Source: Bryobacterales bacterium | Lineage (GTDB): Bacteria; Acidobacteriota; Terriglobia; Bryobacterales; UBA6623 | DNA: 64,000 nucleotides | Assembly (NCBI GenBank): GCA_963422375.2 | Contig: OY729428.2 | Span: forward strand, 2,816,001-2,880,000 | Reading direction: 5' to 3' | In this document: piece by piece, positions 1 through 36,405 of the stretch | Numbering within the stretch: the stretch's first letter is position 1 | How the letters are laid out: every line of letters starts with the position of its first letter | Translations under genes and position numbers: made by a program | Notes under the pieces: model-generated | Told to the model about the DNA's origin: nothing | Databases searched by the model: none | The model's input: only the letters and a program-made list of their open reading frames with translations

Positions 1-1425
1 GACTGTCCAACACGCCAGCCCGCTGCCATGGCTAGTCTCTTCCACGAAGCGCCCGTACTCCTCCTGCGTCACCTCGTACACTCCCACCGCCAACGGCCCA
101 CTGATCGTCACACGGCGCTGAGGCCCTTCGTCGTTTTGCCTGCCGTCCTCTGTAGACGGAGACCCCATCGTGAACGAGCCCCCGGGCACTACTACCAGTT
201 CCGGACAGCCTTCGCAATCGTCGCGGAAGCGGTCCCCCGCGCGCAGGGGTGGCCGCAATCCGCGAATGAGAACCTTGGCTTGGTCCAGCAGCGGCTTGGC
301 CCGCGGAACCCCCTCGTACTTCTCGACGAAGGCATTCAGAGCCTTCAAGTTCTGGCTCTGCTCCACCATTGGCCACACTTGCTGCGCTTCCTCTGCAAGC
401 CGTTGCTGCTCCCGGCCCGATTCCGCCGCAGCGCGTTCCCCGCGCAGCTTCTCGCGAAGCGCTTCTGCGAGAGGCAGGACGATCTTGGCCTCGTCCTTGC
501 CCTTCCACCTCTCGATAAACTCATCCACCTTGCTCTCGCTGTCGGATCCGCTTAATAGCTTCCATTCTTCAAGCGCCGTCAATTCCCTTGAAGGCGGCGG
601 CACCGGATCGGCACCTGTTCCGGCGGGTGCACCGCGCAGATAGACCTTTCCGATCAGATCTTCATAGATCGCCGGATTCTGCTGCTTTCCCGAGGCAGCG
701 TACACTGCCGCCTTCGTGCGTTGGAAGGCTTCTCGTAACTCTACTACATCACGCTGGAGTTCCGGCAAGAAATGGGTAATATAGGTTCCGAACTCGTCTC
801 TGGAAGCGCCGCTTTCCATTCTGTTATTCCCCGTCGGGTACGCGATCAGGGTGCCTTCAGAACCCGCGCTCATCGCCGCCAGCCCAGCTACCATGCTCCC
901 GTCCTCCAGAAACGGATTGTCACGGCAAGCATCTAGCACGAGCACTCGTACGCGAGCGCTGGCCTCCAGCAAGTTGCGAACCGCGTCTGCCGACAGCGCG
1001 GCATCGGGCACCTTCGTCGCTGGGGTCTGGCCGTAGTCCGCCGGAAGAAGGTAGTTCCTACCATCGGCCTGCAACCCGTGTCCGGAGAACCAGAAGAACG
1101 CCAAGTCGTCGCCCTGCAACTCGCTACTGAAGTCCCTCACCGCACGGTCCATCTCCCGCAGGCTCAAGTTCTCGAGCCTTGTCACGCTGAATCCGAGTCC
1201 GCGCAATGCGCCCTCCAGCGCGCGCACTTCCGCGGTCGTGCTCTTCAGCGGCAGGGCCATCTCATAGGCGGCGTTGCCGATGACCAATGCCTTCCTCCCC
1301 GCTACGGCAACCGGCTGGAGCGCCCCATCCTGCGCCTCAAGCAACACCTGCGGCAGCGCAACGCCCAGCAGAGCTGCGGCCACGATGGTTCCGTGACAGA
1401 TCGATCGACGGTTGCAACAGGTCAT
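1..1425 (-). CDS. Caspase-like peptidase C14 domain + helical repeat linker + FGE-sulfatase/CLec domain protein (3' end outside window)
   Basis: Manual translation (not in the ORF track because there is no stop in the window). ATG at 1425 follows a GAGGAAG RBS. Hydrophobic N-terminus MTCCNRRSICHGTIVAAALLGVALPQVLLEAQ; then RKALVIGNAAY, FWFSGHG (catalytic His) and LVLDACR (catalytic Cys); then RFRDDCEGCPELVVVPGGSFTMGS...EGPQRRVTISGPLAVGVYEVT, homologous to the two DGR targets. Confidence 0.9.
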   Translation of the reverse strand, partial: MTCCNRRSICHGTIVAAALLGVALPQVLLEAQDGALQPVAVAGRKALVIGNAAYEMALPLKSTTAEVRALEGALRGLGFSVTRLENLSLREMDRAVRDFSSELQGDDLAFFWFSGHGLQADGRNYLLPADYGQTPATKVPDAALSADAVRNLLEASARVRVLVLDACRDNPFLEDGSMVAGLAAMSAGSEGTLIAYPTGNNRMESGASRDEFGTYITHFLPELQRDVVELREAFQRTKAAVYAASGKQQNPAIYEDLIGKVYLRGAPAGTGADPVPPPSRELTALEEWKLLSGSDSESKVDEFIERWKGKDEAKIVLPLAEALREKLRGERAAAESGREQQRLAEEAQQVWPMVEQSQNLKALNAFVEKYEGVPRAKPLLDQAKVLIRGLRPPLRAGDRFRDDCEGCPELVVVPGGSFTMGSPSTEDGRQNDEGPQRRVTISGPLAVGVYEVTQEEYGRFVEETSHGSGLACWTV

Positions 1426-2140
1426 CGCTTCCTCGTCACGTCTATGCTACCGCACTCTGCCCTGAGACTACGGGGCTCTGCCCCTGCCTCGAACTCGGAC
1501 ACGCACTGGCAGGTTAGGCAGTTGGCAATGGAGCTTGGCTCGGATCCGCATGAGCGATACGTCGCCTGTCGCGCCACCATGTAGCACTCAGGCGTTGGGG
1601 CGCCACACGAGACAGCCCACTCGCGCGCCGCTGCACACCTCGACGTCTCCGCCGCCGCGTCCGCCAACGGAGGACACGAAGTCTTGATCGAGTGCCGCCG
1701 TCGCATAGTCCCGTGCAGGCACGAGTTCGCCAAGGGGATCGAGCATCTGACGCTGAGCGACAGTCCACTGAGGTTTCAGTCGAAGCTCATCTTGGACAGT
1801 CTGAATCTTGCGAGACGACCTCTCAGACCGACGTGACGCTGTGACCTCGGGCGGGACTCAGGGCGCTGCTCCCCGCTGCAACGCCATGCCGCGGGCGACG
1901 GTGCATCGACCGTGGGCGCCTGCCGACGAGACGATGCACAAAGCCGTCGGCATTTTCGACCGGGAGAGCATCGGTCTCCGAGATTGCGAGCTACGCGTCG
2001 AGGAAACCTATCTCAGTTCTCGACCGATGACCGCGACAAAAAACCTAGAGCATCGACAGCTCTCGGAGGAAATCAATGAGATCGAGTGCGCCGACCAATA
2101 TCCCATCCAGCCTAGGGCCTACCGATATTCCATGAAGGAA

Positions 2141-2306
2141 TCCATCGCATAGGTTACGTCGGCGGCGAGATACGAAATGTCTTCGCACATAAGAAATGGT
2201 CGCGAACCGAGAGCACGTGCTTCCCCTTCAGGAAGTCGCACAAGAGCTGGCTATTGTAGGTGCCAAGCACGCGATCGAAGCGCATTGCAATGACTCTGGC
2301 TAGCAT
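2141..2306 (-). pseudogene. Truncated, frameshifted copy of the 5' part of the DGR HRDC accessory gene
   Basis: MLARVIAMRFDRVLGTYNSQLLCDFLKGKHVLSVRDHF matches 31899-32065. There is a 1-nt deletion and homology stops at about 2141. Confidence 0.85.
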
Positions 2307-2325
2307 TGTCCCTCTTCGGTGGCCT

Positions 2326-2401
2326 GCGGCTTGGCTGCGATCGTGCCGTTCGGTCCGGTCTGCTTCGCGCCCGTCTCTTCGGCCCGCCTCCGCCAAGCCG
2401 C
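2326..2401 (-). repeat. Inverted repeat downstream of VR-B (candidate DGR homing hairpin)
   Basis: GCGGCTTGGC (2326-2335) / GCCAAGCCGC (2392-2401). The same arms occur downstream of VR-A although the loop sequence has diverged. Confidence 0.6.
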
Positions 2402-2436
2402 TTCTGCAAAGAGAAATAGGGTAACAGCGCAAAGGG

Positions 2437-4359
2437 CTAGGGAATTGTCCTCAGTACGCGGAAGCCCAGGACGCTGTTGCGGTCGCCGGGGCTGAGCCTG
2501 AAGCGGTACGCCGACCGGCCGTACCGCGGACCGTCGCCCCAGCTGCCGCCCCGAAGGACCCGGTCGGAGCCCGTAGCGGGGCCTCGCGGATCTGTCGCAG
2601 CGCCGCTCGGGTAGGACCCGTACCAGTCCTGCACCCACTCCCATACATTTCCGTGTACGTCGTGCAAGCCGAAAGCGTTTCGACTGAATGACCCCACCGG
2701 AGCCGTATGCACGTAGCCGTCCCGACACGGCGCGACCCCGGCCCAACGGTAGTGGTCCGCTCCGACTTGGTCTGCCATGTTTCCGTACCCGCAGGTCCGC
2801 GTGTAGTCCGGATCATCGCCATAGGAGAAGCGGGTCTCCGATGTCCCCCGAGCCACGTACTCCCACTCCGCCTCGGTCGGCAACCGATACTTCTCGCCTG
2901 TCTTCCCCGACAGCCACTTCACGTACGCCTGAGCATCGTTCCAAGACACACACACCGCGGGCTCCTGCCGACCCTGGCGGAACCCGGGATTCGTCCACGA
3001 TCGCCCGGTGCGAGCATCCCATTCCCCGCTCTCGTGAGTCCGGCACGCCGACCCGCCGTCATGGCCGGCGTCATCCACGAATCGCCCGTACTGCTCCTTC
3101 GTCACTTCGTACACTCCTACCGCCAGCGGGCCGCTGATTGTCACGCGGCGACGAGGCCCCTCATCGTCCTCCCGGTCATTCTCATACGCCGGCGACCCCA
3201 TCATGAATGAGCCCCCGTCCACCACCACCATCTCCGGACAGCTATCGCAGTCCCGAAAACGGTCCCCATCCAGGCCTGGACGCAATCCACGTAGACTCCT
3301 CTCCGGCACTCCAAGGACCACTGCCAGCAACGTCGCAGCGACGGTCCCCGTCACCAGCGCTACCAGCCACCGCGCGGTCGAGCGAGACCGGTCTGGATGC
3401 ACATTAGAGCGCTCTTCGGCGACGCGCCCCGACCCCTGCAGGAGCCCCACGAGGTCCGCGCAGTCCTGTACTCGGTCCTCCTCCCTCAATTCAAGGCATC
3501 GGTCAATCGCCGTGAGAATCCGCTCCGGGAACCGCCCTGCTCCCACCTCTCGCGCCGGCGGCAGTGGGTCCGCTTGGCCCCGCAAGAACGCGGTCAGCCG
3601 CGCCTCCACCTTCACCGGCTGCCGGGATACTGACTCCACCGCCCCTCCGGCGACCATCCGCCACATCACCGCCCCGACCGCGTACAAGTCCGTCCACGGC
3701 CCCAGCTTCCCTTGCCCAACCTGCTCGATCGCCGCGAAGCCTTCCGTGTAAGGGGCGTAAGTCCGCGACACTCCAGCGAGCGTCTGCTTCGCCGCACCGA
3801 AGTCGATCAGCACCGGTCGCTCCGCCTCCTGCCGAATCAGGATGTTGCTGGGCTTGATGTCCCGGTGCAACACGCCAGCTTCGTGGACCGCCTTCAGCCC
3901 TCCCAGCAGCGGAACGATCACCGCCAGCAGGTCAGCCTCGCCGAACGGCCTCCGCGCACGCTCCCGCAGCGCCAGCAAGTTCGCCAGCGACATGCCTTCC
4001 ACGTAATCCATCACGAGGTAAGCCGTGCCGTTCTCCCGGAAGAAATCCCTGCACGTCACGACGCTGGGGACGTCCTTGAATTCGGTCAGGCGCTTCGCTT
4101 CCTCGAGGAACCTATGCAGGCCCTCCGCGAAGTCCTCCCTGCCAGCCTTGCTCCTCGGATGCACCATGCCGTCCTCGCGGACGGACAGCTCGGCGGGGAA
4201 ATACTCCTTGATCGCAACGAGGGATCCAAGGTCCCGGTGCAGCGCCTTGTAGACGATGCCGAAACCGCCGTGCCCCAGCTGCGCCTGCACCTCGTACACG
4301 CTATTGAGAAGCAGGCTGCCCGCCGGCAGCGCGACACGGGTGGGGTCTTCGCCGCCCAT
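2437..4359 (-). CDS. DGR remote target B: Ser/Thr protein kinase - TM - FGE/CLec domain with C-terminal variable repeat
   Basis: Kinase motifs GHGGFG, VAIKE, HRDIKPSN, DFG; TM segment WLVALVTGTVAATLLAVVLGVP; FGE motifs RLPTEAEWEY, GNVWEW, RGGSW, GFRV. Confidence 0.95.
   Translation of the reverse strand: MGGEDPTRVALPAGSLLLNSVYEVQAQLGHGGFGIVYKALHRDLGSLVAIKEYFPAELSVREDGMVHPRSKAGREDFAEGLHRFLEEAKRLTEFKDVPSVVTCRDFFRENGTAYLVMDYVEGMSLANLLALRERARRPFGEADLLAVIVPLLGGLKAVHEAGVLHRDIKPSNILIRQEAERPVLIDFGAAKQTLAGVSRTYAPYTEGFAAIEQVGQGKLGPWTDLYAVGAVMWRMVAGGAVESVSRQPVKVEARLTAFLRGQADPLPPAREVGAGRFPERILTAIDRCLELREEDRVQDCADLVGLLQGSGRVAEERSNVHPDRSRSTARWLVALVTGTVAATLLAVVLGVPERSLRGLRPGLDGDRFRDCDSCPEMVVVDGGSFMMGSPAYENDREDDEGPRRRVTISGPLAVGVYEVTKEQYGRFVDDAGHDGGSACRTHESGEWDARTGRSWTNPGFRQGRQEPAVCVSWNDAQAYVKWLSGKTGEKYRLPTEAEWEYVARGTSETRFSYGDDPDYTRTCGYGNMADQVGADHYRWAGVAPCRDGYVHTAPVGSFSRNAFGLHDVHGNVWEWVQDWYGSYPSGAATDPRGPATGSDRVLRGGSWGDGPRYGRSAYRFRLSPGDRNSVLGFRVLRTIP
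2450..2571 (-). repeat. DGR variable repeat VR-B
   Basis: 122-nt ungapped match to TR 30015-30136 with 19 mismatches, 17 at TR adenines. Confidence 0.95.
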
Positions 4360-5225
4360 GGAGAATGAGTGCTCTTCCTAATCGCGTCGCGACCTTGCCC
4401 GTTTCGAGGCGCAGCGCGAACGGAACTTGAATATACCGAATCCAACCTAATTCCCAGCTACTTGCGAAGTAGGTGGCTCGAACTGCCTGCGTGCGTTGGA
4501 AGGCGATTGGCTCACGGCGCCCATGCAGCAGAATCGTCTCATTCGACATGCCAAGACATGAGAACGCGGGAGTCGATGCGCGGCGCATACGAACGGCATC
4601 GAGTCGTTTTGGTCCCTGTTCAAGCGCGGCCTGTACGGAACCTATCACCGGATGAGCGTCCGTCATCTCGGCCGCTACCTCACGGAGTTCGCGGGACGGC
4701 GCAACGACCGCGACTGCGACACGGCGGAACGGATGCGGCGCATGGCGCGGGGCCTGGTCGGCCGGACGCTGACCTGCCGGCAGCTGACCGGCAAGGCCGC
4801 GGTCGCGGCCCGAGCGGCGCCCGCCGCGCCGAGCGCGGCAGCCCGCTGCGGGCGCGCTCTTCACGCTCGGTACGAGGGGCGCACCGGATCCGGCATGCCC
4901 CGGCGCGACCCCGGTCCGGTCCGGACCGTCCATGCAGGCCGTCGAGCGCCGGGGATCCGCTGTCTTCGGCCCTCGCAGGGCCTGCAAGCGGCTTGCAAGG
5001 CGTGCCCTGCCACCGCCAACCGGGTTTCACCGGGGCAACCGGGGCATGCGAGGCGGCCTCTCTAGTCCCTTCCTCGTCCAATCCGCTGGCAGGCTCGATT
5101 CACATACGATCCCACCCCCCACCCCTCTGTGCCCGCCGCGGCCGCACTCGCATGACCCCAGCTCGACACCCACCTCCCTGCTCACAGCAGTTCTAGGCCG
5201 ACATGGCGTTGTCGGCACTCAGATA

Positions 5226-6788
5226 GAGCCTTTTGCAAAAATCCCGAGCTAATAGCATTATCATTTAGTTAGTCTATTAAGTATTCGATATAATCAATGG
5301 AATAGAACTGAAGTAAATGTAGTTTTAATGGCTTGTCTGCGTTTTGAGTTTCCTGACAATCCCTTGCCCTCCGTGCTATTATTGTAATGCAAGCCTAGTA
5401 AACAGCTGGCAGGATTCAACGAATATGTCCTTGATAGAAACCGTATCCGCGTACTGGTTCACGTTCCAGCAGGGGCTGTTCCCCTGGCTCCAGCAGGAAC
5501 TCGGCCCCCTCGGCGAGCGCTACCGCAGCTTCGTTCAAGCGGTGGAACTGGCGCAGGTCGAGGACTGCCTGCCCGTCGGGCAGGGCGGCCGCGGCCGCCC
5601 CCGCGCAAGCCGCGCCGCCATGGCGCGCGCCTGCATCGCCAAGGCCGTCTTCGACCAGCCCGCTACGCGCTCGCCGGTCGAGCGCCTGCAGACCGATCAC
5701 ACCCTGCGCCGACTGTGCGGCTGGGACCTGGCCGGGGCCGTGCCCGGCGAGGCAACCTTCTCGCGCGCCTGCGCCGAGTTCGCCGCCGGCGAACTGCCCG
5801 GACGCTTGCACCAGGCGCTGCTCGCGCGGACGCTCGACGGCCGCTTGGCAGGGCACGTCTCCCGCGACTCGACCGCCATCGAGGGCCGCGAGCGGCCCGC
5901 CGGGAAGCCCGCGCCGGAGCCGAAACGCAAGCGCGGGCGCCCTCGCAAGGGCGAGCAGCGGCCGCCCGCTCCGCGCCGACTGGCGCGGCAGCCCGACATG
6001 AATCTCGAAGCAATGCTGCACGACCTGCCGCAGGGCTGCGATACCGGCACCAAGCGCAACGCCAAGGGCCGTACCGTCAGCTGGCGCGGCTACAAGCTGC
6101 CTATCGACGCGATCGACGGCGGGATCCCGGTCAGCTGCCTGCTCACCGCGGCTTCGCTGCACGACAGCCAGGCCGCGATCAGGCCGCGATCCCGCTGGCG
6201 ACACGGACCGCGGGCCGCGTCGACAACCTGTACGACCGGATGGACAGCGCGCGCGACGCGGCCGGGATCCGGGCCTTCAGCAAGCGGCTCGGGCACGTGC
6301 CGATCATTGATGTCAACCCGCGCGGCCGGACGGAGCTGCAGGCGGATCTGGCACGGGAGGCCAAGGCGCTGCGCAGCGCCGGGCGGGCGGAGCCCGCCAA
6401 GCTGCGCTACCGCGAGCGCTCGACGGTGGAGCGTGTCAACGGCCGCCTGAAGGACGATTGCGGCGGGCGCCACGTGCGCGTCCGCGGCCACGGCAAGGTG
6501 GCCACGGCAAGGTGCTGTGCCACCTCCTGTTCGGCGTGCTCGCGCTGACGGTGGAGCAGCTCCTGCGCCTGGCGCTCCGAGAGCCCGGGCCGCCGGGACA
6601 GCCGCGAAGAGCGCCCGCCCGCAGGGCCGCGCCGGGAGAGCTGCGCCTGCACCGGGCCGCTCCTCGCAGGAGCGCCCCGCAGCCGAGCAAGCCCAGCTGC
6701 AGGGGGTCTTTTTCGGCGAGAATAACAGCCCGGAAACTAGTCGTTCATGGGGCGGTCAGCCCTCTTTTCTGAATTTTGCAAAAGGCTC
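5226..6788 (+). mobile_element. IS4/IS5-like DDE insertion sequence (1563 bp)
   Basis: 15-bp perfect TIR GAGCCTTTTGCAAAA at both ends; 5-bp direct repeat AGATA at 5221-5225 and 6789-6793. Exact family assignment uncertain. Confidence 0.9.
5425..6772 (+). pseudogene. DDE transposase with two frameshifts
   Basis: Motifs SRDSTAIE, GYKL, SLHDSQAA, YRERSTVERVNGRLKD are split over three frames by tandem duplications at 6170-6191 (11 nt) and 6487-6514 (14 nt). Confidence 0.85.
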
Positions 6789-29856: not shown

Positions 29857-30014
29857 GCGCCTGCAACGGCCTTCGAGCCCGGGCAGGCCTACCAGACGTC
29901 GCAGGCGCTATGGGTTGTTTGTCCGGCCGCCTGCCGGAGCGGGATGAACCGCTTGGACACGGCGATGGCACGCGGGCGAGGTCCTTGAACCGCGCCCTCT
30001 GGCGCCGTCGTGTG
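29857..30014 (-). ncRNA. Structured spacer 3' of TR (part of the DGR RNA)
   Basis: Three stem-loops directly after the TR: 29974-29997, 29922-29938, and a 12-bp stem 29857-29868/29897-29908. Confidence 0.55.
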
Positions 30015-30136
30015 CTCAGCACGCGGAAGCCCAGGTTGCTGTTGCGGTTGCCGGGGCTGTTCCTGTTGCGGTTCGCCGACCGGCCGTTCTGCGGATGGTT
30101 GTTCCAGCTGCCGCCCCGATTGACCCGGTTGGAGCC
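30015..30136 (-). repeat. DGR template repeat (TR)
   Basis: Reads GSNRVNRGGSWNNHPQNGRSANRNRNSPGNRNSNLGFRVL with 11 AAY codons; matches VR-A and VR-B with mismatches concentrated at adenines. Confidence 0.97.
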
Positions 30137-30147
30137 TGCTACGGCGG

Positions 30148-31161
30148 TCACCCCAGATGCAAGGATACCTCGAACACCTGCCTGCGCGCCATGTGGCAGT
30201 CTGCGTGACTGACGTGCGCGACCATGCTACGCACGAACTGCGCGAGCTCGTCCTCGGAGATCTTTCCGTGTCGGTATGCCCTCTCCCGGCCTCGGACGCG
30301 ACGGCGCAACCGCGCCCATTGGCGGCCATCGAGCCTCAGCAAGACGGGAAAGACGCGGAAGCCGAGGAATGGAATCCCTTGGGTCACGGGAGCGAGCCTA
30401 GTGTGTTCCTCCCGCAGATCTAGTCGCAGCGTCTCCGACAGGAATTCCCGGACGGCAGCCAGAGCCTCGTGCAGCCGAGGCTTATCACGAGCGAAGACCG
30501 CGACATCGTCCATGTAGCGCACGTAGCCCGGCAGGCGCAGCCTGTCCTTGACGAAATGGTCCAACTCGCCCAGATACATGTTCGCGAAGTACTGGCTCGT
30601 GAGATTCCCGATGGGGACACCCTTCCCCGGCGCACATCCTGGAATCGGATGGTCGACTATCCCGTCGATGAGCGCTAGCAACGCCTTGTCCTTGACCTTG
30701 CGCCTCCACATCGCCTTGAGCACGTCGTGGTCAATCGTCTCGAAGTACTGGCGGACGTCGCAGAGTAGCGCGTAGGGGAATCGCCGCGCAAAGTGCTGCA
30801 CTCGACGCACGGCCGCGTGAGTGCCGCGGCTCCTTCGGCACGCACAACTGTCGTCGATCAGACCCTGCTCGACGATCGGATCGAGAACGTTGCAGAGAGA
30901 GTGGTGAACCACCCTGTCGCGGAAGTCCGCCGCGCAGATCTTGCGGGGCTTCGGCTCGCGGATCTCGAACACACGATACGGACGCATCCGGTAGCGGCCG
31001 GACTGCAGATCCTCCTGCAGCATGAGCAAGTTGGACTCCAAGTGGAACACGAACCTAGCAATGCCGACGTTCCCCTGCTTTCCCCGCCGTGCGGCATAAG
31101 CGGCATCCAGCAGGCTCCGATACTCGGTGACCTGCTCGAACAGGTGCCCGTGTCGTTTCAT
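30148..31161 (-). CDS. DGR reverse transcriptase
   Basis: FRDRVVHH, GTHAA, GVPIGNLTSQYFAN (SQ motif), YVRYMDD, FLGF; 337 aa with no maturase or endonuclease domain; flanked by avd and TR. Confidence 0.96.
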   Translation of the reverse strand: MKRHGHLFEQVTEYRSLLDAAYAARRGKQGNVGIARFVFHLESNLLMLQEDLQSGRYRMRPYRVFEIREPKPRKICAADFRDRVVHHSLCNVLDPIVEQGLIDDSCACRRSRGTHAAVRRVQHFARRFPYALLCDVRQYFETIDHDVLKAMWRRKVKDKALLALIDGIVDHPIPGCAPGKGVPIGNLTSQYFANMYLGELDHFVKDRLRLPGYVRYMDDVAVFARDKPRLHEALAAVREFLSETLRLDLREEHTRLAPVTQGIPFLGFRVFPVLLRLDGRQWARLRRRVRGRERAYRHGKISEDELAQFVRSMVAHVSHADCHMARRQVFEVSLHLG

Positions 31162-31511
31162 CGGCCCGCCTGCTGCTTGCGCCAGCCTCCGAGCATAGCG
31201 CCAACCTCGCTCATGCGGCGCATGGCGTACTCGCAGCGCGAGTGCGGGAAGTAGCCCACCACATGGCAGATCCGCAGCAAGATTCTCAGCTTCTCGAGAC
31301 GCAGGTTAGCACGCGCCAAGACCGGCTGCTTGGCGCGGGAATACCGCGCCTCGACCAAGTCCTCGGCCATATCGAGGGCTAGGTTGTCGATGCGGTTGGA
31401 AAAAGTGAAACGGACATGCTTAGGGAGCTTGGCGGTCGTCGGCAGCAACCAGTTCAGGAAATCCAGCCACGCAACGAAGACAGGCAGGTCCCCGTCTGAC
31501 CTCGTGCCCAT
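31158..31511 (-). CDS. avd: DGR accessory variability determinant (four-helix bundle)
   Basis: 117 aa; PKHVRFTFSNRIDN, LEKLRILLR, EVGAMLGGW; ATGA overlap with RT. Confidence 0.92.
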   Translation of the reverse strand: MGTRSDGDLPVFVAWLDFLNWLLPTTAKLPKHVRFTFSNRIDNLALDMAEDLVEARYSRAKQPVLARANLRLEKLRILLRICHVVGYFPHSRCEYAMRRMSEVGAMLGGWRKQQAGR

Positions 31512-32084: not shown

Positions 32085-32160
32085 GCGGCTTGGCTGCGGT
32101 CGTGCCGTTCGATGCGGCCTGCTTCGCGCCCGTCTCGTCGGCCCGCCTCCGCCAAGCCGC
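32085..32160 (-). repeat. Inverted repeat downstream of VR-A (candidate DGR homing hairpin)
   Basis: GCGGCTTGGC (32085-32094) / GCCAAGCCGC (32151-32160). Confidence 0.6.
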
Positions 32161-32195
32161 TTCTGCAAAGAGAAATAGAGTAACAGCGCAAAGGG

Positions 32196-34784
32196 CTAGG
32201 GAATTGTCCTCAGCACGCGGAAGCCCACGCCGCTGCCGCGGTTGCCGGGGCTGAGCCTGAAGCGGTACGCCGACCGGCCGTACCGCGGACCGTCGCCCCA
32301 GCTGCCGCCCCGAAGGACCCGGTCGGAGCCCGTAGCGGGGCCTCGCGGATCTGTCGCAGCGCCGCTCGGGTAGGACCCGTACCAGTCCTGCACCCACTCC
32401 CATACATTTCCGTGTACGTCGTGCAAGCCGAAAGCGTTTCGACTGAATGACCCCACCGGAGCCGTATGCACGTAGCCGTCCCGACACGGCGCGACCCCGA
32501 CCCAACGGTAGTGGTCCGCTCCGACTTGGTCTGCCAAGTTTCCGTACCCGCAGGTCCGCGTGTAGTCCGGATCATCGCCATAGGAAAAGCTGGTTTCCGA
32601 TGCCGCCCGAGCCACGTACTCCCACTCCGCCTCGGTCGGCAACCGATACTTCTCGCCTGTCTTCCCCGACAGCCACTTCACGTACGCCTGAGCATCGTTC
32701 CAAGACACACACACCGCGGGCTCCTGCCGACCCTGGCGGAACCCGGGATTCGTCCACGATCGCCCGGTGCGAGCATCCCATTCCCCGCTCTCGTGAGTCC
32801 GGCACGCCGACCCGCCGTCATGGCCGGCGTCATCCACGAATCGCCCGTACTGCTCCTTCGTCACTTCGTACACTCCTACCGCCAGCGGGCCGCTGATTGT
32901 CACGCGGCGACGAGGCCCCTCATCGTCCTCCCGGTCATTCTCATACGCCGGCGACCCCATCATGAATGAGCCCCCGTCCACCACCACCATCTCCGGACAG
33001 CCGTCGCAGTCCCGCAAGCGGTCCTCCGCCTCCGGGCGCGGACGCAATTCACGGAGCAGCACTCGAGCCTGTTCCAGCAGCCCCTCGGCTCCGGCAACCC
33101 CGTCGTACTTTTCGATAAAGGCCTCTGCCGCTTTCGAGTTCCGGCTCCGCTCCACGAATGCCCAGGCATCCCCCGCTTCCTCGGCAAGCTCCCTTGCGAG
33201 GCGCTCGTTTCGCAGCCTCCCGAGCAGCACTTCGGCGAGAGGCAGGACCACCCGAGCATCCTCCCGTCCCTGCCACTCCCGGATGAATTCCTCCACCTCG
33301 TCCTCGCTGTCGGAGTCCTCCATCGACTTCCATTCGTCAAGAGCTGTCGATTCAGCCGGTGGGGAGTTGGAGGGCCCTGACTGGTTCGGTGGCTCAATTG
33401 TCTCCTGTGCCTTTCCGGCCGGGCGGTCGTCCGAGGGCGGAGGCGACACGACTGTGGCGCTGGGAGGCCCAAGCTTCGGGACTGCCTTGGGCATCGCCGG
33501 CGATGCGCCGTTTTCGGCCTTCTTCGAACCCTCTGGCTCTGACGACTCGGTCGTGGCACCAGCAGAGTCAGTCTCTTGCGGCGGCGTATCTGCCGTGGCA
33601 ACCCCTCCTGCGTTGTCGCGACCGTCTGGATCCGGCCCGGGCCCTGCCGACCTTGAATCCGACACCGGGGCACGCCCGCCCTCATCTTCGATGTCCCCTG
33701 GCGAACCTCCCTCCGGCACTCCAATGACGACCGCTGCAAGCAAGGCTGCGGCCACGGCGGCAGCCCCGAGGGCCACTGCCCATCGCGCGGTCGAACGAGA
33801 CCGCCCCGGGGGCTGAACCGAGGGCTCCTCGGCGACGCGTCCCGGCCCCTCCAAGAGCCCCGCGAGTTCCGCGCAGTCCTGTACTCGGTCCGCCTCCTTC
33901 AGTGCGATGCATCGGTCAATCGCCGCGAGAATCCTTTCAGGGAACCGCCCCGCTCCCACCTCACGCGCCGGGGGCAGCGGATCCTCTTGCCCCCGCGCGA
34001 ACGCGGTCAGTCGCGACTCCACCTTCACCGGCTGCCGGGAGACCGCCTCGTCCGCACCCCCGGCGACCATCCGCCACATCACCGCCCCGACCGCGTACAG
34101 GTCCGTCCACGGCCCCAGCTTGCCTTCCCCGACCTGCTCAATCGCCGCGAATCCCTCCGTGTACGGGGCGTACGACCGCGACATTCCGGCGAGAGTCTGC
34201 TTCGCCGCCTCGAAGTCGATCAGCACGGCCCGGTTCTCTTCCCGGTCCACCTCTCGCCGAATAAGGATGTTGCTCGGCTTGATGTCCCTGTGCAGCACGC
34301 CGGCGTCGTGGACCGCCTTCAACCCTCCCAGCAGCGGCACTGTCACCGCCAGCAGATCGGCCTCCCCGAACGGCCTCCCCGCGCGCTCCCGCCGCGCCAG
34401 CAGGTCCGCCAGCGACATGCCTTCCTCGTAATCCATCACGAGGTACGCCGTGCCGTTCTCCCGGAAGAAATCCCTGCACGTCACCACGTTGGGGACGTCC
34501 TTGAATTCGGTCAGGCGCTTCGCTTCCCCGAGAAACCTATGCAGGCCCTCCGCGAAGTCCGCCCCGCGAGCCTGGCTGCTCGGATGCACCGTGCCCGCCT
34601 CGCGGACGGACAGCTCGGCGGGGAAATACTCCTTGATCGCGACGAGGAATCCAAGGTCCCGGTGCAGCGCCTTGTAGACGATGCCGAAACCGTCGTGCCC
34701 CAGCTGCGCCTGCACCTCGTACATGCCGTTGAGAAGCAGGCTGCCCGCTGGCAGCGCGACACGGGATCTGCCCTCTCCGCCCAT
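32196..34784 (-). CDS. DGR adjacent target A: Ser/Thr (pseudo)kinase - TM - low-complexity and helical linker - FGE/CLec domain with variable repeat
   Basis: Start MGGEG chosen by homology to target B; GHDGFG, VAIKE, HRDIKPSN, DFE; TM segment WAVALGAAAVAAALLAAVVIGVP; FGE motifs; VR at the C-terminus. Confidence 0.95.
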   Translation of the reverse strand: MGGEGRSRVALPAGSLLLNGMYEVQAQLGHDGFGIVYKALHRDLGFLVAIKEYFPAELSVREAGTVHPSSQARGADFAEGLHRFLGEAKRLTEFKDVPNVVTCRDFFRENGTAYLVMDYEEGMSLADLLARRERAGRPFGEADLLAVTVPLLGGLKAVHDAGVLHRDIKPSNILIRREVDREENRAVLIDFEAAKQTLAGMSRSYAPYTEGFAAIEQVGEGKLGPWTDLYAVGAVMWRMVAGGADEAVSRQPVKVESRLTAFARGQEDPLPPAREVGAGRFPERILAAIDRCIALKEADRVQDCAELAGLLEGPGRVAEEPSVQPPGRSRSTARWAVALGAAAVAAALLAAVVIGVPEGGSPGDIEDEGGRAPVSDSRSAGPGPDPDGRDNAGGVATADTPPQETDSAGATTESSEPEGSKKAENGASPAMPKAVPKLGPPSATVVSPPPSDDRPAGKAQETIEPPNQSGPSNSPPAESTALDEWKSMEDSDSEDEVEEFIREWQGREDARVVLPLAEVLLGRLRNERLARELAEEAGDAWAFVERSRNSKAAEAFIEKYDGVAGAEGLLEQARVLLRELRPRPEAEDRLRDCDGCPEMVVVDGGSFMMGSPAYENDREDDEGPRRRVTISGPLAVGVYEVTKEQYGRFVDDAGHDGGSACRTHESGEWDARTGRSWTNPGFRQGRQEPAVCVSWNDAQAYVKWLSGKTGEKYRLPTEAEWEYVARAASETSFSYGDDPDYTRTCGYGNLADQVGADHYRWVGVAPCRDGYVHTAPVGSFSRNAFGLHDVHGNVWEWVQDWYGSYPSGAATDPRGPATGSDRVLRGGSWGDGPRYGRSAYRFRLSPGNRGSGVGFRVLRTIP
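32209..32330 (-). repeat. DGR variable repeat VR-A
   Basis: 122-nt ungapped match to TR with 20 mismatches, 18 at TR adenines. Confidence 0.96.
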
Positions 34785-34954
34785 GGAGATAGAATACCCT
34801 TGCACAGCGCGTCGCGCCCCCAGCGACAGCAAGCCACAAGATGACCCGGACGTGAGTGTACCGAGAGCAGCCTCAGAATTCCGTACATCGAAGGATTGGT
34901 CAAGTACGGCCGTCCGGCGTGAGGCCGTGGGATTCTCCGCAAGGCCTTTCGATT

Positions 34955-36405
34955 GAGAATTATATATCTGAGTGCCGAGGGAATCAAGTCGGCAAATTAT
35001 CAAGCCATAATAAGATTTCATATTTCTTCCGAATTTCCATTGAAATTCTGTGGTGTTTCTTGGTAGAATAGTTCCAGTATGGGATACCGTAAATGAAGAA
35101 ACAAGATCCCGGAAAGTGGTTCCGCAAAGGCATCACATTGATCGAAGTGATCGCCATGTTCTCCGATGACGAATCCGCGGAAAAATGGTTCGCCTCCATG
35201 CGCTGGCCGGACGGTCCCGCGTGCCCCCGCTGCCGCGGCTCCAGCGTGCAGTCCGGCGCGGCCGACCCTTCGATGCCGTACCGTTGCCGCGGCTGCGGCA
35301 AGCGCTTTGCCGTACGCACCGGCAGCGTGACGGCCGACACCAAGCTCGGCTACCGCACCCGGGCCGTCGCCCTGTTCCTGCTGACCACCGGCATCAAGGG
35401 CGTCTCGAGCATGAAGCTGCACCGCGACCTAGGCATCAGCCGGAAGTCGGCCCGGCACCTGGCGCACCGCATCCGCGCGTGCCGGGAGCGGGATCAGGGC
35501 CTGTTCGCCGGCCCGGCGGAGGTGGACGAGACCTGCGTCGGCGGCAAGGAACGCAACAAGCACGAGAGGAAGAAGGCCCGCGCCGGGCGCGGGCCCGTCG
35601 GCAAGACCCCGGTGGCGGGGGCGCGGGACCGCGCCACGCCCGGGGCGCAGGTCCGCTCCGACGAGGCGGCGGCCTGCGCCGGCATGGCGGAGTTCGCGCG
35701 CGAAGCCGTCAGGCACTCCGGCGGCGAGTACGTGCGCGGGGCAGGGCATACGAACGGCATCGAATCGTTCTGGTCCCTGTTCAAGCGCGGCCTGTACGGC
35801 ACCTATCACCGGATGAGCGTCCGTCATCCGGGTCGCTACCTCACGGAGTTCGCGGGATGGTACAACGACCGCGACTGCGACACGGCGGAACGGATGCGGC
35901 GCATGGCGCGGGGCTTGGTCGGCCGGACGCTGACCTACCGGCAGCTGACCGGCAAGGCCGCGGTCGCGGCCCGAGCGGCGCCCGCCGCGCTGAGCGCGGC
36001 AGCCCGCTGCGGGCGCGCTCTTCACGCTCGGTGCGCTCGGTGCGCTGCACACTCGGTACGAGGGGCGCACCGGATCCGGCATGCCCCGGTGCGCCCCCAG
36101 TCCGGCCCGGACCGTCCATGCAGGCCGTCGAGCGCCGGGGATCCGCTGTCTTCGGCCCTCGCAGGGCCTGCAATCGGCTTGCAAGGGGCGCCCTGCCACC
36201 GCCAACCGGGTTCCACCGGGGCATGCGAGGCGGCCTCTCTAGTCCCTTCCTCGTCCAATCCGCTGGCAGGCTCGATTCAGATGCGATCCCACCCCTCCGT
36301 GCCCGTCGCGGCCGCACTCGAATGACCCGAGCTCGACACCGACCTCCCTGCTCACAGCAGTTCTAGTCGGACATGGCGTTGTCGGCACTCAGATACATAA
36401 TTCCC
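34955..36405 (+). mobile_element. IS1595-family element (probably defective)
   Basis: TIRs GAGAATTATATATCTGAGTGCCG / CGGCACTCAGATACATAATTCCC; no matching TSD on its own flanks. Confidence 0.9.
35093..36325 (+). pseudogene. IS1595 transposase with apparent internal deletion and read-through tail
   Basis: RWPDGPACPRC...CRGC, EVDET, SDE, HTNGIESFWSLFKRG, YRQL. The stretch between DRAT and PGAQV is unusually short. Confidence 0.75.

Follow-up and report, generated by a model that had tools for sequence, protein, structure and literature searches.

Can a single diversity-generating retroelement (DGR) serve a receptor gene that lies far from its template repeat (TR)? The question is raised by gene B, a kinase-lectin gene of a Bryobacterales bacterium (assembly GCA_963422375.2, contig OY729428.2). 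The window analysed here is the 64,000-nucleotide stretch from 2,816,001 to 2,880,000 of that contig, and positions are counted from its first letter unless a contig is named. Gene B ends in a variable region (VR-B) that resembles the TR of a DGR about 27.5 kb away, and a preliminary description made from the letters alone had read it as a remote second target of that TR. We find that VR-B genuinely belongs, as a remote cognate VR, to the only DGR of this genome, and we regard it as probable that B is a membrane receptor kinase whose cognate lectin VR has been homogenised with that of target A, the gene next to the DGR.

A receptor kinase gene and its distant template

Gene B and its parts are as follows.

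2437..4359, minus strand: target gene B, 640 aa (open reading frame (ORF) list and translation)
3469..4296, minus strand: protein kinase domain of B, residues 22-297 (Pfam PF00069, 126.4 bits, cut-off 31.7)
3307..3369, minus strand: single predicted transmembrane (TM) helix of B, residues 331-351 (sole Kyte-Doolittle peak, 2.35 over 19 residues)
2449..3240, minus strand: FGE-sulfatase / C-type-lectin-fold domain of B, residues 374-637 (Pfam PF03781, 188.9 bits)
2446..2571, minus strand: VR-B, the last 42 codons of B, cognate to the TR

The motifs GHGGFG, VAIK, HRDIKPSN and DFG stand at residues 29, 48, 165 and 186, and by domain and motifs together B is a predicted Hanks-type Ser/Thr kinase. 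Pfam, the hydrophobicity peak and the motif positions all agree with the earlier picture of a kinase-TM-lectin protein with canonical kinase motifs. Because Arg-rich residues lie on the N-terminal side of the TM helix, the kinase is probably cytoplasmic and the lectin domain extracytoplasmic. Sequence matches of the lectin domain in the PDB include PvdO (5hha, 1e-48), FGE and TvpA (2y3c, 5e-16), the last being the DGR variable protein of Treponema denticola. The VR lies inside the C-type-lectin-fold domain and ends 9 nt from the stop codon, and its variable codons are former AAC/AAT codons of the TR.

No reverse transcriptase (RT), Avd or TR was found within ~10 kb on either side of B, as had been stated for its immediate surroundings. 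The DGR cassette lies ~27.5 kb off on the same strand, in the order target A, avd, RT and TR.

30011..30136, minus strand: TR, 31 adenines, downstream of the RT gene
30148..31161, minus strand: DGR reverse transcriptase, 337 aa (Pfam RVT_1 PF00078, 57.1 bits; IGNLTSQ and YMDD)
31158..31511, minus strand: Avd accessory protein (NF033474 DivGenRetAVD, 98.7 bits, cut-off 80; PF22296 bAvd, 58.3 bits, cut-off 40)
32196..35021, minus strand: target A, an ORF of 941 aa whose start homologous to that of B lies at ~34784
32205-32330, minus strand: VR-A

DGR-type RTs carry a motif-4 signature [ILV]GxxxSQ together with a YxDD catalytic box. As described earlier, B lacks the long linker of target A, which has an extra 217 aa after its TM helix; this linker is acidic, Pro-rich and helical.

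A whole-genome search with the TR, which the preliminary description had proposed for listing the VRs, returned one TR and three cognate VRs, namely VR-A, VR-B and VR-C, at 2 kb, 27.5 kb and 1.47 Mb from it. Aligned without gaps over 2446-2571, VR-B differs from the TR at 20 positions, 17 of which are TR adenines. Positions common to the VRs are given below as indices (idx), with idx 0-121 corresponding to 2450-2571 in VR-B; within this interval there are 19 mismatches, 17 at TR adenines (Fisher p = 2.7e-11), which reproduces exactly the counts reported before, and VR-A has 20, of which 18 are at TR adenines. The 3' end ...CTGAGGACAATTCCCTAG is common to VR-B and VR-A, and on this point too the alignment agrees with the earlier statement. 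Over idx 101-121 VR-B equals the TR except for G116A, and VR/TR homology stops after ...CTGAG in all three VRs. A GC-rich constant stretch followed by the point of VR/TR divergence is thus present at VR-B, in what appears to be an arrangement like that of the initiation of mutagenic homing sites (IMH/IMH*). Measured against the remote targets of Wu et al. 2018 (PMC5758913; here and for the other papers cited we draw on parts of the text), VR-B has two non-adenine exceptions over idx 0-121 in a genome with no other DGR. The type of RT, the adjacent Avd, the confinement of TR/VR differences to adenines and the position of the VR at the 3' end of a gene, within a lectin fold, are likewise those of a DGR.

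It is very improbable that VR-B is served by a template other than the TR at 30011..30136. We found no point in favour of another template, the genome-wide search returned only this TR, and the genome, which is 96.4% complete, encodes only one DGR-type RT and a single Avd. The other RT gene (G000:C1:1224743-1225708, or L049:1243-2208, minus strand, where G000 denotes this genome) is of the group II intron type (TIGR04416, 287.5 bits against a cut-off of 300). It is possibly truncated or broken, since the genome search flagged a TGA inside a longer match.

To establish that locus B exists as assembled, we compared the Logan contigs of four runs (X3-X6, from two studies) over 1500-4400; these are consensus contigs from which rare variants have been dropped. 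All four runs match B without a single difference across its unique flank and its kinase part and, given these identical unique flanks, appear to represent the same strain. In each of them, B-specific contigs link the unique neighbourhood to the flank, VR, lectin and kinase parts, and in X4, X5 and X6 the B-type and A-type 3' flanks (0 and 19 differences) occur together at similar depths (8/6, 77/82 and 31/33). As both flank versions co-occur at similar depth, loci A and B both exist, and locus B is real. The 95% identity of B to A over 1155 bp, in a genome very rich in insertion sequence copies, might have suggested that B is merely target A assembled a second time, through collapse or misplacement, but the kinase halves are only 86.5% identical, the 217-aa linker is absent from B, and the contigs of both studies bridge the locus. 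An assembly artefact, the danger named in the preliminary description, is therefore vanishingly improbable and, as far as contigs allow, refuted.

The same contigs bear on the alleles of VR-B. At the six VR sites that distinguish B from A, X3 and X4 show the B allele, and X5 and X6 show the A allele in the contig placed on B. The VR contig has a depth of 119.7 and the lectin contig of 140.7, as against 67-83 for the unique parts, and to judge from these depths the A allele in X5 and X6 is probably a contig simplification of two co-existing alleles rather than a converted VR-B. External alleles were sought by scanning metagenome and genome contigs for exact matches to the 3' end of the VR, and this yielded 0 loci.

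Homogenisation with target A and the evidence from other targets

The likeness of VR-B to the TR has to be read together with its likeness to VR-A. Fifteen TR substitutions, including the non-adenine C39G, are identical in the two VRs, which differ at six sites within a longer stretch of similarity between the two genes.

2455..2484, minus strand: the sole part of VR-B unlike VR-A, with six differing sites (2455, 2469, 2471, 2477, 2478 and 2484; idx 87-116, the 3' third)
2379..3242, minus strand: near-identical A/B tract (14 mismatches in 864 nt; identical runs of 256 and 396 nt)
2141..2378, minus strand: older common 3' flank of A and B (30 mismatches in 238 nt)

Comparison of A with B gives a synonymous divergence (dS) of 0.27 for the kinase domain (dN/dS values 0.068/0.27), 0.69 for the juxtamembrane/TM region and only 0.03 for the part of the lectin domain that precedes the VR. 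Because dS is so much lower in the lectin than in the kinase domain, and because the near-identical tract spans 2379-3242, we conclude that the lectin half and VR of the two genes have recently been homogenised, through either gene conversion or a partial duplication. The 3' end common to VR-A and VR-B is shared as part of the same tract. Since the homogenised half includes the VR, about three quarters of the adenine signature of VR-B is, by this comparison, inherited from VR-A, and VR-B cannot be counted as separate evidence of diversification.

Better evidence for action in trans comes from the third cognate VR, which was recovered by the whole-genome TR search.

G000:C2:1379827-1379952 (L014:7827-7952), outside the window: VR-C

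VR-C ends another kinase-TM-lectin gene (~612 aa) with no RT nearby, and of its 17 mismatches to the TR, 15 are at adenines (15/16 over idx 0-121). It differs from VR-B at 14 sites, 11 of them TR adenines (p = 5.5e-6); in the two comparisons with VR-A and VR-B, 11/14 and 12/15 differences are at TR adenines, and its adenine pattern is its own, independent of those of VR-A and VR-B. Between C and A/B, dS is 0.03-0.06 in the VR and ~1.0, that is, saturated, in the rest of the lectin domain. Overwriting by TR-derived cDNA, the known mechanism, would keep the non-adenine sites of VR-C TR-like at a distance of 1.47 Mb. Owing to these TR-like sites and its own adenine pattern, VR-C supports trans action better than VR-B does. 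The earlier proposal that one RT/TR serves several receptors in trans thus stands as regards the single RT/TR, the three VRs and VR-C; the support it had drawn from VR-B is mostly non-independent.

The same arrangement is found on a larger scale in a congeneric genome, G017, in which one TR-RT-Avd cassette (TR at C5:1280454-1280664) accompanies at least 16 distinct cognate VRs. The 16 examined have 17-26 mismatches to the TR each, 14-22 of which are at adenines, suggesting that these remote VRs are individually diversified and supporting action in trans. The VRs on C5 (loci L015 and L019-L038) fall into four regions up to ~3.3 Mb from the TR, and at 3.015-3.024 Mb they include small lectin genes arrayed in tandem with a spacing of ~1.1 kb. 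With Wu et al. 2018 as the only literature yardstick, G017 may have one of the largest target sets for one TR. A second congener, G021, has three copies of the TR region (L039, L040 and L041; 89-100% alike, on three contigs), and as at least two of them have an RT and Avd, the cassette itself has been duplicated.

What, then, happened to VR-A and VR-B after their homogenisation? By analogy with the DGR family, the avd-RT-TR unit would make TR RNA, the RT would reverse-transcribe this RNA, inserting random bases wherever it meets an adenine, and the resulting cDNA would replace the VR from an anchor in its GC-rich constant stretch at the 3' side, ...GGGCTTCCGCGTGCTGAG, and so rewrite ligand-binding codons of the sensor; adjacency of the VR would not be required, such that A, B and C could all be served in trans. 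Four of the six VR-A/VR-B differences lie at TR adenines where 1.5 are expected (binomial p = 0.036, Fisher p = 0.028; p = 0.014 when only idx 80-121 is considered), and five of the six alter an amino acid, in or beside former AAC codons. Pairwise VR differences in G017 have a median of 25, with 16 for the closest pair, and on that yardstick the six between A and B are exceptional; full-length retrohoming into A or B since the homogenisation is unlikely, as it would leave far more than six differences. In published work the start of DGR cDNA is fixed at the 3' end and its 5' boundary is variable (PMC5758913), and at the 5' junction, which is homology-dependent, at least 8 bp of homology are enough for integration (PMC3240598). 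With such a fixed 3' start and variable 5' junction, a short cDNA would rewrite only the 3' part of the VR. We therefore lean slightly towards one short 3'-anchored retrohoming event, in either A or B, as the source of the post-homogenisation differences; continuing independent diversification of B is not the reading we adopt.

Several observations weigh against even this restrained reading and would fit a VR-B that is a passive copy, in which the adenine pattern arose at A or an ancestor, was carried over by duplication or conversion, and was followed only by ordinary mutations at permissive ligand-binding codons, B itself never having undergone retrohoming. The 15 shared substitutions, with C39G among them, and the lectin dS of 0.03 are what such copying would leave. 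Divergence is not significantly higher in the VR (6/126) than in the rest of the lectin part (17/714; Fisher p = 0.14), two of the six differences are at non-adenine sites, and the proportion at adenines is only mildly significant, while the same codons may tolerate or select ordinary mutations. The G-to-A change at 2455 lies in the 3' constant stretch of VR-B and is not TR-encoded, and VR-A and VR-B each carry one non-adenine change in the 3' third of the VR. Clustering of mismatches alone proves nothing, because five other A/B mismatches cluster in 2827-2846, outside any VR. No new VR-B letters appear in any of the four runs, whose same-strain consensus contigs contain only the A or B allele, and no hairpin of the type known from Bordetella phage BPP-1 was found after the VR.

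Passive copying nevertheless seems to us unlikely. The share of differences at TR adenines (p ~0.03) exceeds expectation, all six differences sit at the 3' end, the place expected for integration of a short cDNA, and B retains the features of cognate targets in this lineage, namely the 3' constant stretch, the end point of VR/TR homology and the conserved downstream element described below. Moreover, the same TR keeps a VR at 1.47 Mb TR-like, and the remote VRs of G017 are individually diversified. Whichever account holds for the six sites, adenine-biased TR/VR mismatches at a remote locus are not in themselves proof of targeting, because the pattern is heritable via duplication or gene conversion from another target, and surveys that count remote targets by adenine bias will overcount independent events.

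The cluster at 2827-2846 alters three residues (GT..R in B, AA..S in A), and among the paralogs no third one matches either version as a donor.

The sequence downstream of the VRs

The preliminary description had also reported a downstream inverted repeat common to VR-A and VR-B, and this claim did not hold up. A search with a 6-base seed found no inverted repeat within 130 nt after the VR, an exhaustive scan found no perfect stem of at least 5 bp in the 110 nt after VR-A or VR-B, DNA folds of the downstream flanks were no better than those of shuffled sequences (z = +1.47 and +0.14), and RNAalifold on 19 flanks supported nothing (covariation term -0.05). A candidate 6-bp hairpin over the variable centre of the element described next was rejected: G021 alone has it without a mismatch, the paired fraction of cells is 60.9% overall, and 212/500 shuffles are as good. 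What A and B do have in common is the whole 3' flank (2141-2437, 12.6% diverged). A downstream inverted repeat is present in 127/372 DGRs and hence not universal (PMC5758913).

In place of an inverted repeat, the VRs are followed by a conserved stretch of sequence.

2333..2440, minus strand: conserved non-coding element of ~110 nt, directly after the stop of B (alignments; model match C2:2818333-2818440)
32091-32199: conserved element after VR-A
G000:C2:1379958-1380060: conserved element after VR-C

The element stands after every cognate VR, both A, B and C here and those of the congeners G017, G021 and G019, and thus in four congeneric genomes. Its layout comprises two TTACCCT-like pyrimidine blocks, then a GC-rich block, and conserved arms with a hypervariable 4-nt centre. 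A hidden Markov model (HMM) of the element was built from 21 flanks of three other species, with this genome left out and the VR excluded, and run over the 6-Mb genome. Its three best matches were those after VR-B (E = 1.4e-4), VR-A (3.5e-3) and VR-C (5.3e-3), with the next at E = 0.38, and one 16-mer of the element has three copies in the genome, at those three sites. When 31 genomes of the genus were searched with a model of its sequence, 15 gave matches; Rfam gave 0 matches over the whole window.

Among the 13 VR paralogs compared in G017, the median identity starts at 0.59-0.64 in the coding stretch 240-600 nt upstream, rises to 0.82 immediately ahead of the VR and stands at 0.80 within it; it is 0.70 in the 120 nt after the stop and then drops to 0.53, the level of unrelated controls. 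Of the 26 element matches in G017, 21 abut a VR-like match, including seven that were not in the model, and five abut none; conversely, 7/28 VR-like matches are without an element match. By these comparisons, the conserved feature after the VRs appears to be a sequence element and not a structure, and it may be either a cis targeting signal or a by-product of VR-centred gene conversion.

Three further paralogs, D, E and F, are without the element, although E keeps remnants of it.

1..1425, minus strand: paralog D, a caspase (Peptidase_C14)-lectin gene, 673 aa, running off the window (VR-like end with 35 mismatches to the TR, 19 at A)

Paralog E is a kinase-lectin gene of 752 aa on the plus strand, just upstream of the window. 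E and D (G000:C2:2812493-2817425, or L013:6493-11425) belong to a cluster of genes for lectin-tipped signalling proteins that B completes as third member. Counted against the TR, the VR-like ends carry 35-38 mismatches in D and E, roughly half at adenines. With 35-39 mismatches for the three, again about half at adenines, and no downstream element beyond the remnants in E, we rejected D, E and F as current targets. D and E, and F as well, are possibly decayed former targets.

A more far-reaching interpretation, which we put forward tentatively and hold to be somewhat less probable than its negation, is that the element is a target-recognition signal that replaces the BPP-1 hairpin and licenses lectin genes across the genome for retrohoming in trans, in which case the element-less D, E and F would have dropped out and drifted from the TR. 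If this were true, TR-driven homogenisation of VRs would seed gene conversion between targets, as between A and B, and the sensors would evolve in concert around a hypervariable tip. Found at dozens of targets in four genomes, the element is a testable candidate for remote target recognition that does not depend on a hairpin.

Known systems and the surroundings of gene B

The genes around B include PSCyt2/PSD1, DUF1501 and sulfatase genes, a content associated with planctomycetes and suggestive of a planctomycete-like host. The B locus adds a genus of such gene content to the bacteria that would retune several signalling receptors by means of one DGR.

Neither remote DGR targets nor kinase-lectin targets are new, both having been published already (PMC5758913, PMC7517822, PMC10907252). 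In the survey of Wu et al. 2018, 45/372 DGRs had 73 non-adjacent targets, 10 DGRs had 29 targets more than 100 kb away, and the DGR of T. denticola had seven remote targets (PMC5758913). The system described here resembles those remote targets in that one RT/TR goes with distant VRs whose departures from the TR are nearly confined to adenines and in that distances range between a few kb and the Mb scale, and its avd-RT-TR order is architecture B2 of that survey (PMC5758913). It resembles T. denticola in the match of its lectin domain to TvpA (2y3c), whereas its targets are predicted receptor kinases and not lipoproteins. The present system differs in two further respects: two of the three VRs are near-identical, apparently by conversion, and the host seems planctomycete-like by its gene content. 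By their own account, large metagenome surveys overlook remote targets (PMC8144416).

The closest architectural parallels are the variable proteins (VPs) of cyanobacteria, where kinase-lectin and orthocaspase-lectin proteins occur as dispersed paralogs that include 'remote VPs' (PMC7517822). As in those proteins, a C-terminal C-type lectin domain with its VR is joined to an N-terminal Ser/Thr kinase or orthocaspase, recent intragenomic duplication scatters the paralogs, transposase genes lie near, and some members have a predicted TM helix. The differences, judged from the portions of that work consulted, are that the present proteins belong to another phylum, that their predicted kinase-TM-lectin topology is explicit, and that a conversion tract between targets has been mapped and a conserved element downstream of the VRs found. 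The theme of variable lectins on kinases or caspases comes so far, in the literature drawn on here, mainly from cyanobacteria and other multicellular or aggregate-forming bacteria. In planctomycetes, FGE-type lectin domains are fused to conflict and signalling domains (PMC7159879).

In Thiohalocapsa PB-PSB1, diversification in trans and transposon-driven duplication of DGR loci have been described (Dore et al. 2024, PMC10907252). The two systems are alike in that transposons duplicate loci, and the DGR 1 target of Thiohalocapsa, which matches its TR and shows no variability, is perhaps in the position of VR-B. In Thiohalocapsa, however, diversification was seen directly in population metagenomes, while the present data are consensus contigs of one strain. 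Adenine mutagenesis, a GC-rich 3' constant stretch resembling the IMH, and an Avd together with an RT that has the SQ motif are shared with BPP-1, for which trans action was shown experimentally (Guo et al. 2011, PMC3240598). In the BPP-1 type, the VR is followed at 4-34 bp by a GC stem (7-10 bp) that carries a GRNA loop, in place of which we find the ~110-nt element, and the TR of BPP-1 precedes the RT gene rather than following it as in the present cassette.

Upstream of both A and B lies an insertion sequence of high copy number, for which BLAST gives well over 100 matches across the three contigs.

4585-5225 (B side) and 35746-36395 (A side): insertion sequence copies (BLAST)
35093-36325: IS1595-type transposase ORF near A
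5344-6450: DUF772 transposase ORF near B

Within the flank common to A and B, a 92-aa ORF at 2154-2432 has no match in Pfam or NCBIfam, and it was rejected as a gene, as the A copy has a stop and the A/B mismatches are spread evenly over codon positions (9/10/10). Target A itself departs from B and C in its kinase, which has GHDGFG for GHGGFG and DFE for DFG where B and C keep the canonical motifs, and from these substitutions A may be a pseudokinase. The 79-aa N-terminal extension of A is probably spurious.

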